Assembly (NCBI RefSeq): GCF_055900595.2
Contig: NZ_CM148325.1
Length of the DNA: 64,000 bases
Strand: one strand, 5' to 3'
A program made the position numbers and the translations under genes. The notes beneath the pieces are model-generated. The model was given only the letters and a program-made list of their open reading frames with translations, ran no database searches and was not told where the DNA came from. Every line of letters starts with the position of its first letter. The stretch's first letter is position 1. Below are positions 60,760-64,000 of this stretch, piece after piece.

Positions 60760-62424
60760 ATGTGTTCAATTTTTGGCGTATTCGATATCAAAACAGACGC
60801 AGTTGAGCTGCGTAAGAAAGCACTCGAGCTGTCACGCTTGATGCGTCATCGTGGCCCGGACTGGTCCGGTATTTATGCCAGCGATAACGCCATTCTCGCC
60901 CACGAACGTCTGTCCATTGTTGACGTTAACGCGGGGGCGCAACCTCTCTACAACCAACAAAAAACTCATGTGCTGGCAGTAAACGGTGAAATCTACAACC
61001 ACCAGGCATTGCGCGCTGAATATGGCGATCGTTACCAGTTCCAGACCGGGTCTGACTGTGAAGTGATCCTCGCGCTGTATCAGGAAAAAGGGCCGGAATT
61101 TCTCGACGATTTGCAGGGCATGTTCGCTTTTGCCCTGTACGACAGCGAAAAAGATGCGTATCTGATTGGTCGCGACCATCTGGGGATCATCCCGCTATAT
61201 ATGGGCTATGACGAACACGGTCAGCTGTATGTGGCCTCAGAAATGAAAGCTCTCGTGCCAGTATGCCGCACGATTAAAGAGTTCCCGGCGGGGAGCTATT
61301 TATGGAGTCAGGACGGCGAAATCCGTTCTTATTATCACCGCGACTGGTTCGACTACGATGCGGTGAAAGATAACGTGACCGACAAAAACGAGCTGCGTCA
61401 GGCACTGGAAGATTCCGTTAAAAGCCATCTGATGTCTGATGTGCCTTACGGTGTGCTGCTTTCTGGTGGTCTGGATTCCTCAATTATTTCCGCGATCACC
61501 AAGAAATACGCCGCCCGTCGCGTGGAAGATCAGGAACGCTCTGAAGCCTGGTGGCCGCAGCTGCACTCCTTTGCTGTAGGTCTGCCGGGTTCACCGGATC
61601 TGAAGGCAGCCCAGGAAGTGGCAAACCATTTGGGCACTGTGCATCATGAAATTCACTTCACTGTACAGGAAGGTCTGGACGCCATCCGCGACGTGATTTA
61701 CCACATTGAAACCTATGATGTGACGACTATCCGCGCTTCAACACCGATGTATTTAATGTCGCGTAAGATCAAAGCGATGGGCATTAAAATGGTGCTGTCC
61801 GGTGAAGGTTCTGATGAAGTGTTTGGCGGTTATCTCTACTTCCACAAAGCGCCGAACGCTAAAGAACTGCATGAAGAGACGGTGCGCAAACTGCTGGCCC
61901 TGCATATGTATGACTGCGCGCGCGCCAACAAAGCGATGTCCGCCTGGGGCGTGGAAGCGCGCGTTCCGTTCCTCGACAAGAAATTCCTCGACGTGGCAAT
62001 GCGTATTAACCCCCAGGATAAAATGTGCGGTAACGGCAAGATGGAAAAACACATCCTGCGTGAATGTTTTGAGTCGTACCTGCCTGCAAGTGTGGCCTGG
62101 CGGCAGAAAGAGCAGTTTTCCGATGGCGTCGGTTACAGTTGGATAGACACTCTGAAAGAAGTGGCGGCGCAGCAGGTTTCTGATCAACAACTGGAAACTG
62201 CCCGTTTCCGCTTCCCGTACAACACGCCGACCTCAAAAGAAGCGTATCTGTACCGGGAGATCTTTGAAGAACTGTTCCCGCTACCGAGCGCCGCTGAGTG
62301 TGTACCGGGCGGCCCGTCCGTCGCGTGTTCTTCCGCTAAAGCGATTGAATGGGATGAGGCGTTCAAGAAAATGGACGATCCGTCTGGTCGTGCGGTTGGC
62401 GTTCACCAGTCGGCCTATAAGTAA
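60760..62424 (+). CDS. asnB: asparagine synthetase B (glutamine-hydrolysing)
   Basis: 554 aa from MCSIFGVFDI (N-terminal Cys nucleophile) with SGGLDSS PP-loop. Confidence 0.97.
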   Translation: MCSIFGVFDIKTDAVELRKKALELSRLMRHRGPDWSGIYASDNAILAHERLSIVDVNAGAQPLYNQQKTHVLAVNGEIYNHQALRAEYGDRYQFQTGSDCEVILALYQEKGPEFLDDLQGMFAFALYDSEKDAYLIGRDHLGIIPLYMGYDEHGQLYVASEMKALVPVCRTIKEFPAGSYLWSQDGEIRSYYHRDWFDYDAVKDNVTDKNELRQALEDSVKSHLMSDVPYGVLLSGGLDSSIISAITKKYAARRVEDQERSEAWWPQLHSFAVGLPGSPDLKAAQEVANHLGTVHHEIHFTVQEGLDAIRDVIYHIETYDVTTIRASTPMYLMSRKIKAMGIKMVLSGEGSDEVFGGYLYFHKAPNAKELHEETVRKLLALHMYDCARANKAMSAWGVEARVPFLDKKFLDVAMRINPQDKMCGNGKMEKHILRECFESYLPASVAWRQKEQFSDGVGYSWIDTLKEVAAQQVSDQQLETARFRFPYNTPTSKEAYLYREIFEELFPLPSAAECVPGGPSVACSSAKAIEWDEAFKKMDDPSGRAVGVHQSAYK

Positions 62425-62437
62425 GAAAGGCGGTACT

Positions 62438-62462
62438 GCCCCGGAGAAATCCGGGGCTGTTT
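62438..62462 (+). terminator. putative terminator downstream of asnB
   Basis: Hairpin GCCCCGGA-GAAA-TCCGGGGC with a weak T-run. Confidence 0.6.
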
Positions 62463-62465
62463 CAG

Positions 62466-62903
62466 TTATTGAGCTGCTTGTTGATTCTGATATGCAGTAA
62501 GGAAATGTTCCGGGTTTGCCACATCACTGTTTGACAACTCATCACTGTAGGCCACCGACCAGGTCGCCTGCTCATCCGGAATATGCAGGCTGCCATTCCC
62601 CTCTTTCAGGCGTAATAACTCAAAAGATTTGCCCTTAATTACGGCGGTATAGGATTTTTCACCTTCCTGTAATGCTTTCACTTTACAGCGAAAAATCTGG
62701 CCATCGATGTCATTATCAACATGCGATACCTGAATGAGGGCTTCATTAGAGGCTTTCGGCCCTATCCGCATCATCCACACCACAGCGCCTTCCTGCCCAC
62801 GATAGCCAAAAACATATTTACCGATTTCCGGTTTGACCGTATCGGCAAACGCAGATTGCATAAGTAATAACGCACCCATCAGCGCCGTCATAAAACGCAG
62901 CAT
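62466..62903 (-). CDS. hypothetical secreted protein
   Basis: 145 aa; Sec signal peptide MLRFMTALMGALLLMQSAFA cleaved before DTV; SD GAGGG 6 nt upstream of the ATG. Confidence 0.65.
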   Translation of the reverse strand: MLRFMTALMGALLLMQSAFADTVKPEIGKYVFGYRGQEGAVVWMMRIGPKASNEALIQVSHVDNDIDGQIFRCKVKALQEGEKSYTAVIKGKSFELLRLKEGNGSLHIPDEQATWSVAYSDELSNSDVANPEHFLTAYQNQQAAQ

Positions 62904-63166
62904 AGTATTCCCTCAATAAATCGCCTGAAGTGGTAGCAGAGATGCAGGCGTAGCGATCCCTGCCCTGTCCTGTTGCAACGGGTCAGTATTTCATAGATTA
63001 ATTTCCTACCACTATTGTTGAATTCCGAATTTCATCCTGTATGACAAAAGAATGGCTGTAGGGTGGGGAAAAAACACAAAGTAAACAATAATTGACGAAT
63101 ATAGCGCCACGCTGTTCGCAACCTAACCAAACAGTCACTTTCGAGCAATTTTCCTTGAAAAAGAGG

Positions 63167-63195
63167 TTGACGCTGCAAGGCTCTATACGCATAAT
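63167..63195 (+). promoter_or_regulatory. putative sigma70 promoter of the metT tRNA operon with GC-rich discriminator
   Basis: TTGACG, 17 nt spacer, CATAAT, then GCGCCCCGC (stringent-type discriminator), about 40 bp upstream of the first tRNA. Confidence 0.55.
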
Positions 63196-63235
63196 GCGCC
63201 CCGCAACGCCGATAAGGTATCGCGAAAAAAAAGAT

Positions 63236-63312
63236 GGCTACGTAGCTCAGTTGGTTAGAGCACATCACTCATAATGATGGGGTCACAGGTTCGAATCCCG
63301 TCGTAGCCACCA
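63236..63312 (+). tRNA. metT: tRNA-Met (elongator, CAU)
   Basis: 77 nt GGCTACGTAGCTCAG...GTAGCCACCA with anticodon CAT. Confidence 0.95.
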
Positions 63313-63322
63313 TCTTTTTTTT

Positions 63323-63407
63323 GCGGGAGTGGCGAAATTGGTAGACGCACCAGATTTAGGTTCTGGCGCCGCAAGGTGTGCGAGTTCAAGTCTCGCCTCC
63401 CGCACCA
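63323..63407 (+). tRNA. leuW: tRNA-Leu (UAG)
   Basis: 85 nt GCGGGAGTGGCGAAATTGGTAGACGC...CCCGCACCA with long variable arm. Confidence 0.95.
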
Positions 63408-63430
63408 TTCACCAGAAAGCGTTGTACGGA

Positions 63431-63505
63431 TGGGGTATCGCCAAGCGGTAAGGCACCGGTTTTTGATACCGGCATTCCCTGGTTCGAATCCAGGTACCCC
63501 AGCCA
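63431..63505 (+). tRNA. glnU: tRNA-Gln (UUG)
   Basis: 75 nt TGGGGTATCGCCAAGCGGTAAGGCACCGGTTTTTGATACCGG...CCCCAGCCA. Confidence 0.95.
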
Positions 63506-63539
63506 TCTTCTTCGAGTAAGCGGTTCACCGCCCGGTTAT

Positions 63540-63614
63540 TGGGGTATCGCCAAGCGGTAAGGCACCGGTTTTTGATACCGGCATTCCCTGGTTCGAATCC
63601 AGGTACCCCAGCCA
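63540..63614 (+). tRNA. glnW: tRNA-Gln (UUG)
   Basis: Identical copy of the preceding tRNA-Gln (UUG). Confidence 0.95.
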
Positions 63615-63629
63615 TCGAAGAAACAATCT

Positions 63630-63706
63630 GGCTACGTAGCTCAGTTGGTTAGAGCACATCACTCATAATGATGGGGTCACAGGTTCGAATCCCGTCGTAG
63701 CCACCA
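63630..63706 (+). tRNA. metU: tRNA-Met (elongator, CAU)
   Basis: Second copy of the elongator tRNA-Met. Confidence 0.95.
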
Positions 63707-63754
63707 AATTCTGAATGTGTCGAATACGTTCGGCAAATTCACAAACCAATTTGT

Positions 63755-63829
63755 TGGGGTATCGCCAAGCGGTAAGGCACCGGATTCTGATTCCGGCATT
63801 CCGAGGTTCGAATCCTCGTACCCCAGCCA
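63755..63829 (+). tRNA. glnV: tRNA-Gln (CUG)
   Basis: 75 nt with anticodon loop GGATTCTGATTCC. Confidence 0.95.
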
Positions 63830-63866
63830 ATTTATTCAAGACGCTTACCTTGTAAGTGCACCCAGT

Positions 63867-63941
63867 TGGGGTATCGCCAAGCGGTAAGGCACCGGATTCT
63901 GATTCCGGCATTCCGAGGTTCGAATCCTCGTACCCCAGCCA
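63867..63941 (+). tRNA. glnX: tRNA-Gln (CUG)
   Basis: Second copy of tRNA-Gln (CUG). Confidence 0.95.
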
Positions 63942-63950
63942 CATTAAAAA

Positions 63951-63973
63951 AGCTCGCTTCGGCGAGCTTTTTG
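63951..63973 (+). terminator. intrinsic terminator of the tRNA operon
   Basis: Hairpin AGCTCGC-TTCG-GCGAGCT followed by TTTTT. Confidence 0.9.
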
Positions 63974-64000
63974 CTTTTCTGCGTATATTCAATGTCGAAT

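Follow-up and report, generated by a model that had tools for sequence, protein, structure and literature searches.

A conserved gene for a predicted periplasmic β-barrel protein at the asnB–metT junction of Escherichia coli and its loss through a 431-bp deletion

The PliC/MliC family is defined by a β-barrel together with the two motifs SxSGAxY and YxxxTKG (PMC5507604). Both motifs are visible in MliC of Escherichia coli, MliC of Pseudomonas aeruginosa and PliC of Brucella. ACP of Neisseria, which has the same fold, inhibits lysozyme and carries none of the PliC/MliC motifs (PMC5507604). An eight-stranded antiparallel β-barrel, common to MliC and PliC, is predicted by AlphaFold2 also for the product of the gene described here, an open reading frame (ORF) for a 145-aa protein with asnB on one side and the metT tRNA operon on the other, in a 64,000-nucleotide stretch of DNA (contig NZ_CM148325.1 of RefSeq assembly GCF_055900595.2; this whole stretch is referred to below as the window).

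The ORF is likely to be a functional, vertically inherited chromosomal gene that encodes an exported, soluble periplasmic barrel and has been lost from most E. coli via one 431-bp deletion. Genome comparison demonstrates the gene, its conservation and the history of the deletion. The gene is already present in RefSeq as a hypothetical protein, its family is uncurated and its fold familiar, and it does not represent a new kind of biological system. The value of the locus is that it corrects a K-12-centred view of the junction and offers what appears to be an unusually clear evolutionary history of a conserved hypothetical periplasmic barrel.

An intact gene in some E. coli and its remnant in K-12

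The initial annotation, which was made from the sequence of the window alone, had proposed a 145-aa ORF preceded by a good Shine-Dalgarno sequence and transcribed opposite to both neighbouring genes. Its position and ATG start proved to be exact, the Shine-Dalgarno sequence was recovered (Table 1), and the ORF runs towards asnB (convergent) and away from the metT operon (divergent). RefSeq labels the product as 'hypothetical protein'. The asnB–metT spacer, given in the initial annotation as ~815 bp against a few hundred bp in K-12, is 811 bp in the window and 379 bp in K-12 EMG2 (asnB ends at 1623 and tRNA-Met starts at 2003 of contig L001).

Alignment of the window with K-12 and with a divergent intact allele revealed that K-12 retains 87 bp at the 3' end of the ORF, together with the probable terminator hairpin, and is without a clean block of 431 bp. 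Thus, K-12 is a deletion derivative, and nothing has been inserted in the window. In the intact allele typical of sequence type 131 (ST131), GGCCA is found at both ends of the deleted block, which amounts to a 5-bp microhomology and makes the exact placement of the 431-bp segment ambiguous. One boundary of the deletion lies inside the coding sequence and the other 252 bp upstream of tRNA-Met. The resulting junction, in which ...CACTGTAGGC is joined to CAGTATTTCATAG..., is identical in the four gene-less strains K-12 EMG2, APEC (avian pathogenic E. coli) O2:K1:H5, CFSAN027343 and GF4-3. A single deletion event between the two GGCCA pentamers would have taken the promoter-proximal 80 bp, the Shine-Dalgarno sequence and codons 1–117.

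A 1-kb query spanning the locus matched 5424 of 5426 complete E. coli genomes, with full coverage in 985 and, among the matches listed, coverage of ~57% in the remaining genomes, one of them at 32%. The variable segment was found in exactly the same 985 of the 5426 genomes (~18%), each time as a single chromosomal copy. A 44-mer with the junction at its centre, which is incapable of seeding a megablast hit in intact genomes, was present in 4242 (~78%), including O157:H7. Carriers of the intact gene include O7:K1 CE10 and many O25b:H4-ST131 strains; carriers of the deletion include K-12, O157:H7 and many B2 strains. Most E. coli, K-12 among them, lack the gene, and it is conserved in other genomes (see below). 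The K-12 reference therefore represents the derived state at the asnB–metT junction, where an unannotated 87-bp gene remnant is left, and work on K-12 can never reveal the product of the intact gene. Approximately one fifth of complete E. coli genomes, those of the pandemic ST131 clone included, have an intact, strongly conserved gene for a predicted exported protein.

Frameshifted alleles of the intact gene (P0033 and P0044) occur in a few E. coli, in contigs of up to 5.3 Mb, the frame being shifted after ...LLRLKE. They appear to indicate a second, independent route of gene loss. In addition, the deletion joins the remnant of the ORF in frame to sequence upstream of metT (K-12-type junction, e.g. 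L001 ~1665–2000), and gene callers sometimes turn the fused remnant into a spurious ORF of 97 aa (P0046, 10 member sequences).

Table 1. Features of the asnB–metT junction, in coordinates of the window.
Feature	Coordinates	Strand	Remarks
asnB	60760..62424	+	Convergent neighbour of the ORF
GC-rich hairpin GCCCCGGAGAAATCCGGGGC	62438..62457		Between the stop codons of asnB (62424) and the ORF (62466); retained in K-12
ORF, 145 aa, stop codon included	62466..62903	-	ATG start; annotated as WP_000943486.1
ORF 3' end, 28 codons and stop, AYSDELSNSDVANPEHFLTAYQNQQAAQ followed by the stop	62466..62552	-	Dead remnant in K-12-type genomes
Left deletion microhomology	62550..62554		GGCCA
Segment missing from K-12-type E. 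coli, 431 bp	62553..62983		Codons 1-117, Shine-Dalgarno sequence and 80 bp upstream
Signal peptide, codons 1-20, MLRFMTALMGALLLMQSAFA	62844..62903	-	Sec-type; predicted signal peptidase I cut after AFA
Upstream region of the ORF	62904..63166	-	Must hold the ORF promoter
Shine-Dalgarno sequence GAGGG	62910..62914	-	6-nt spacer to the ATG of the ORF
Right deletion microhomology	62981..62985		GGTCA in the window; GGCCA in the ST131-type intact allele
Sigma-70 promoter of the metT operon, TTGACG-17-CATAAT	63167..63195	+	Element of the neighbour, outside the deletion
Seven tRNA genes (ARAGORN)	63236..63941	+	Order Met, Leu, Gln, Gln, Met, Gln, Gln; the first tRNA-Met begins at 63236

Ancestry, selection and protein family

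Homologues with 87–93% identity are named from E. albertii, E. marmotae, E. ruysiae, E. fergusonii and the cryptic Escherichia clades, and others with 52–70% identity come from Pseudocitrobacter, Superficieibacter and one unclassified enterobacterium. The gene order nagC-nagD-asnB-ORF-(tRNAs)-ubiF-miaB is common to Pseudocitrobacter cyperus, Salmonella enterica (subsp. indica, as named by the sources of the allele), an E. fergusonii-type contig and E. albertii. The asnB genes of the Salmonella and Pseudocitrobacter loci are 87.5% and 84.9% identical to that of the window; hence these two comparisons are truly between genera. It is probable that the gene was located at the asnB/metT junction before the Escherichia species diverged.

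As estimated by the Nei-Gojobori method, the ratio of nonsynonymous to synonymous substitution (dN/dS) between the window ORF and the ST131-type allele is 0.053 at a dS of 0.17, the corresponding values being 0.089 and 0.71 for the E. fergusonii-like allele and 0.074 and 0.77 for the Salmonella allele. Pairwise dN/dS values of 0.05–0.09 point to strong purifying selection on the ORF. Every full-length orthologue examined has an intact start, Shine-Dalgarno sequence and signal peptide. Together with the RefSeq annotation and with 151 representative clusters matched at E≤1e-3, these ratios bear out the view that the ORF is more than a chance reading frame.

The initial annotation had left the choice between a minimal insertion and an ancestral gene, and had found no integrase and no obvious att repeat. 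A horizontally acquired minimal islet, which certain E. coli lineages gained by insertion beside the metT tRNA operon, would account for the patchy distribution of the gene within the species (18% of genomes), the adjoining tRNA operon and the slightly low G+C content of the ORF (46.8% versus 50.8% for the window). The presence of an E. fergusonii-like allele in some E. coli, to which an allele assigned by its sources to S. enterica subsp. indica is close, also shows the locus to be exchangeable by homologous replacement. However, genomes without the gene hold the 87 bp of its 3' end and are deletion derivatives, and the boundary of the variable segment lies inside the coding sequence and not at a tRNA 3' end. 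No integrase ORF is present between asnB and metT in the list of ORFs of the window, and the ends of the variable segment, read in the alignment with no repeat-finding tool, have no repeat longer than the 5-bp microhomology. A tblastn search found no phage copy of the ORF, and its 'plasmid' matches were megabase-scale Escherichia records, evidently chromosomes, and one 509-kb Xanthomonas replicon. Furthermore, the gene is syntenic in E. albertii, the E. fergusonii-type contig, S. enterica and Pseudocitrobacter, with asnB in the last two at 85–87% identity, which is a normal distance between genera. The islet is extremely improbable, insertion being refuted by the 87-bp remnant of the ORF at 'empty' sites. 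The other half of the initial proposal stands: synteny, selection and absence from phages fit an apparently old, vertically inherited gene rather than an islet targeted to tRNA genes.

Several alleles at this locus are divergent. The asnB gene of the window is 95.0% identical to that of K-12 and 96.2% to that of the ST131-type allele, and only 113 genomes are at least 99% identical to the window over 62300–63300; allelic divergence at asnB and the ORF thus appears unusually deep for a core region of E. coli. The E. fergusonii-like allele found in some E. coli (OkiPb01715, L015 1410–1847), with the C-terminus ...YFLTAYQKQLAGK, is 88.7% identical to the window in the variable segment and 95.5% in the adjoining asnB. 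The S. enterica allele (L005–L007) is close to it (dS 0.20). This suggests that homologous replacement between species may have occurred at the asnB–metT locus.

Superficieibacter electus has a 132-aa homologue (P0032) with 69% identity to the window protein, and also a paralogue or second lineage of ~54% identity at a different housekeeping junction (L008–L010, and L020 3971–4429). The latter copy lies between genes for phosphotransferase system components EIIC/EIIB and for a TonB-dependent receptor, with HIT, DUF1425 and LpoB genes adjoining. We take this junction to be the ptsG-fhuE-hinT-ycfL-lpoB region.

Searching 1.84 billion representative proteins with phmmer gave 151 matches at E≤1e-3, 64 of them at E≤1e-10, and nearly all are 135–160 aa in length. 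These correspond to ~150 clusters at 50% identity across Proteobacteria and Bacteroidota, with named members from Pedobacter, Pseudomonas, Pectobacterium and Xanthomonas. An alignment of 72 sequences displays the conserved blocks RPEVGxYVKAY immediately after the leader, RxGP, EALVQxxGIDHxWDGxI, LYLP and, at the C-terminus, NPEHFLTxYLxQ. In enterobacterial members the segment at residues 63–68 (nt ~62700–62717) reads DNDIDG. DxDxDG is a calcium-loop pattern; calcium binding was set aside, as the wider family has IDHxWDG at this position.

The window protein has no match in Pfam (E≤1), NCBIfam, PHROGs or PADLOC, and a Pfam scan of the 72 members at E≤0.1 gave scattered noise, with one or two members per family and no consistent hit. 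A profile search of PDB sequences yielded nothing below E 0.8. The UniRef label 'DUF4367 domain-containing' of a 70%-identical orthologue (P0028) was not reproduced, since none of the 72 members, P0028 included, matches DUF4367; another UniRef label, 'Tissue inhibitor of metalloproteinase', was not reproduced either, and no Pfam family rises above noise in the 72 members. No paper was found in the literature on the asnB/metT intergenic region or on the three public alleles WP_000943486.1, WP_000943484.1 and WP_000943396.1, which are already annotated as coding sequences for a 'hypothetical protein'. As the family is covered by neither Pfam nor NCBIfam and none of its structures has been solved, it would reasonably merit curation.

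Two relatives carry the domain in membrane proteins. P0064 comprises a class III adenylate/guanylate cyclase, a transmembrane helix, a Pro/Ala linker and then the barrel domain, and P0100 a TIR_2 domain, a transmembrane helix and then the barrel domain. In PADLOC, TIR models are matched by the TIR part of P0100 and PycC models by the cyclase part of P0064; the TIR-barrel gene (locus L034) overlaps a PGDYG-domain gene and follows a gene for a DHH phosphoesterase. A tandem duplication (P0052) and forms of ~270 aa with an uncharacterised C-terminal extension also exist. Apparent giant repeat-module relatives (P0070 and P0084) are InlB B-repeat/Calx-beta proteins of which only a short stretch was matched, and were discarded as spurious, and P0104, in which a receiver domain precedes the barrel domain, was put aside as a possible chimera owing to its low-complexity, eukaryote-like N-terminus.

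Predicted export, fold and comparison with known barrels

The leader begins with M-L-R, continues with the hydrophobic core FMTALMGALLLM, for which the 10-aa Kyte-Doolittle mean reaches 2.15, and ends in QSAFA before DT, with Ala at positions -3 and -1. It thus has the three parts of a signal peptide, namely a basic n-region, an h-region and small residues at -3/-1, and these features agree with the Sec-type leader cleaved after AFA that was initially proposed. The leader is conserved in orthologues, and a hydrophobic N-terminal segment is present in 71 of the 72 family members. The lipobox [LVI][ASTVI][GAS]C, characteristic of bacterial lipoproteins, occurs in the first 35 residues of none of them. 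The product would be exported by the Sec pathway and in all likelihood cleaved behind Ala20 by signal peptidase I, releasing a soluble, acidic periplasmic protein with a predicted mature form of 125 aa, 13.9 kDa and pI 5.3. Export, the cleavage site and a soluble barrel fold are predictions with good support.

The AlphaFold2 model built with the 72-sequence alignment has a mean predicted local distance difference test score (pLDDT) of 91.2 and a predicted template modelling score (pTM) of 0.79. It consists of the leader helix, eight β-strands at residues 27–119 and two further helices, a short one and that of the C-terminus (residues 131–144), which carries the most conserved motif. The modelled fold is a streptavidin-like, eight-stranded antiparallel meander β-barrel capped by the conserved C-terminal helix with NPEHFLTxY.

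Among known structures, the highest structural score, 9.3, was obtained with the C-terminal barrel of D-aminopeptidase DAP (1ei5), which is a loose fit with a root-mean-square deviation (rmsd) of 9.0 Å. It was followed by PliC of Brucella (4mir, 8.9), PliC of Salmonella (3oe3, 8.8; 82/85 residues, rmsd 2.8 Å, 16% identity) and PhiA of Brucella (7dpy, 7.9). Scores of 6.4–7.8 were found for stand-alone barrels and barrels appended to penicillin-binding proteins (PBPs), 6.9–7.3 for small outer-membrane barrels, 6.8 for Neisseria ACP (6gq4), 6–6.8 for avidins and 5.9 for E. coli MliC/YdhA (2f09). PliC is the nearest compact structural neighbour, but is only about one Z unit above unrelated barrels.

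The barrels of DAP (1ei5) and of PBP-like hydrolases (2qmi, 4whi, 8fek and 7spn) are accessory domains fused to a serine hydrolase, whereas the window protein stands alone; the 103-residue chain 5hal is an exception among the enzyme-attached barrels. Bradavidin (2y32), shwanavidin (3szh) and HP1028 (4inn) have structural scores below those of PliC and no sequence similarity to the window protein. A small outer-membrane β-barrel of the OmpX, PagL or NspA type, which would have long amphipathic strands with a hydrophobic exterior and a C-terminal aromatic β-signal, was rejected on these features.

A role in the periplasm as an inhibitor of peptidoglycan hydrolases such as lysozyme, like PliC/MliC, Neisseria ACP and Brucella PhiA, is suggested by the proximity to PliC in structure. 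A loop of the barrel would then enter the active-site cleft of the enzyme and protect the cell wall. However, none of the 72 family members contains SxSGAxY (searched as S.SGA.Y), or the strand 6 motif YxxxTKG (searched as TKG and [WY].[TS]KG), or a match to the MliC Pfam model at E≤0.1. The family profile was aligned by hhalign with a probability of 5% to MliC and 0.7% to a three-sequence MliC/PliC alignment. Membership in the PliC/MliC family was rejected, both motifs being absent and profile similarity lacking. With ACP and PhiA there is no detectable sequence relationship, and ACP is surface-exposed on the outer membrane. As ACP inhibits lysozyme without the PliC/MliC motifs, a PliC-like mode may still apply to the window protein, and an inhibitor of this kind is an unlikely candidate that deserves some weight.

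Candidate functions and neighbouring features

In the favoured reading of a functional, exported barrel, the domain would be a binding module for an extracytoplasmic ligand, which could be a small molecule or a protein, for example a cell-wall hydrolase. In the periplasm, this ligand would be bound, sequestered or blocked by the stand-alone protein, and the relatives joined by one transmembrane helix to TIR or class III adenylate cyclase would use the barrel as an external sensor. The best argument for a binding module is the occurrence of the domain as the extracytoplasmic end of the TIR and cyclase membrane proteins. The barrel domain is predicted to be always outside the cytoplasm and could serve a signalling protein as the part that faces outwards.

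A more specific proposal is that the protein is the E. coli representative of an uncurated family of extracytoplasmic binding or sensor domains, possibly a motif-less inhibitor of host lysozyme or a cell-wall hydrolase, whose gene is subject to an old presence/absence polymorphism. In this combined form it is quite unlikely. If true, this old polymorphism would set lineages such as ST131 and O7:K1 CE10 apart from K-12, O157:H7 and the majority of E. coli.

Several observations weigh against a functional gene for an exported binding barrel with a single deletion history. Foldseek found nothing in the PDB at E≤0.001, so that the fold assignment is generic; its top rows, the fHbp barrel and de novo barrels, were taken as generic fold resemblance. 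A promoter scan recovered only the metT promoter and no sigma-70-like promoter on the minus strand upstream of the ORF. Only two clear sensor-type fusions occur among the 151 representatives. The neighbourhoods of nine homologues share no recurrent gene partner, and the genomic context thus gives no clue to function. Approximately 199 of the 5426 genomes fall into neither class, as both the 44-mer of the junction and the intact segment are missing from them. Finally, the same junction is found on differing flank haplotypes, the B2 APEC strain (L012) having the ST131-type left flank and K-12 another. A single deletion event therefore requires later recombination. Movement of the deletion allele between backgrounds by recombination is favoured over the other explanation, independent recurrence of the deletion at the GGCCA repeats.

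The absence of a recognisable promoter in the scan, together with the frameshifted alleles and the loss of the gene from ~78% of E. coli without obvious cost, would also be expected of a decaying or non-functional ORF, a relic that is leaving all lineages and has no current role. In the favoured reading, too, the function is dispensable for E. coli as a species. A relic is nevertheless very unlikely given dN/dS of 0.05–0.09 at dS of up to 0.8, the conservation of length and motifs across genera and phyla, and start, Shine-Dalgarno sequence and signal peptide all being preserved in the full-length orthologues.

Similarly, little credence is given to the reading of the product as an orphan immunity protein that would act in the periplasm against a cell-wall effector of type VI secretion. 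No effector gene is adjacent in the Escherichia, Salmonella, Pseudocitrobacter, Pectobacterium or metagenomic loci, matches to toxin families near homologues are weak or faint and none is immediately adjacent, and the stable housekeeping synteny is unlike that of effector-immunity islands. In single cases, a MASE2-GGDEF gene lies upstream of the homologue (Pectobacterium), and elsewhere NlpE-like or DUF2147 genes are nearby.

The hairpin between asnB and the ORF is a probable bidirectional terminator common to both genes. Boxes resembling sigma-70 and sigma-E promoters that were read manually upstream of the ORF were dropped as unconvincing. A block reading AGGATGAAATTCGGAATTCAACAATAGTG on the minus strand, at ~63010–63040, is conserved between E. 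coli and relatives as distant as Pseudocitrobacter, and is kept in K-12 despite the loss of the ORF; it could be a regulatory site of the tRNA operon or the promoter region of the lost gene.

The tRNA genes at 63236–63941 form what is presumably the metT-leuW-glnU-glnW-metU-glnV-glnX operon. An Rfam search of 62300–64000 at E≤1 returned the seven tRNAs and sub-threshold noise, and nothing else. Beyond the operon, an extra ORF of 142–194 aa with no Pfam match adjoins ubiF in S. enterica (L005 3261–3836 and L006 3261–3689) and in the E. fergusonii-type locus (L036 1692–2276), and is absent from the E. coli loci examined. The copy number of tRNA genes varies: there are seven in the window and in K-12, only tRNA-Met and one tRNA-Gln in IPCEC48, and eight in CFSAN027343, which has a third copy at the Gln(UUG) position. 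Such variation presumably arose by recombination between repeated copies of the tRNA genes. In E. coli GF4-3, a transposase gene of IS621 (IS110 family) is located between the last tRNA-Gln and ubiF (L014 3771–4751).
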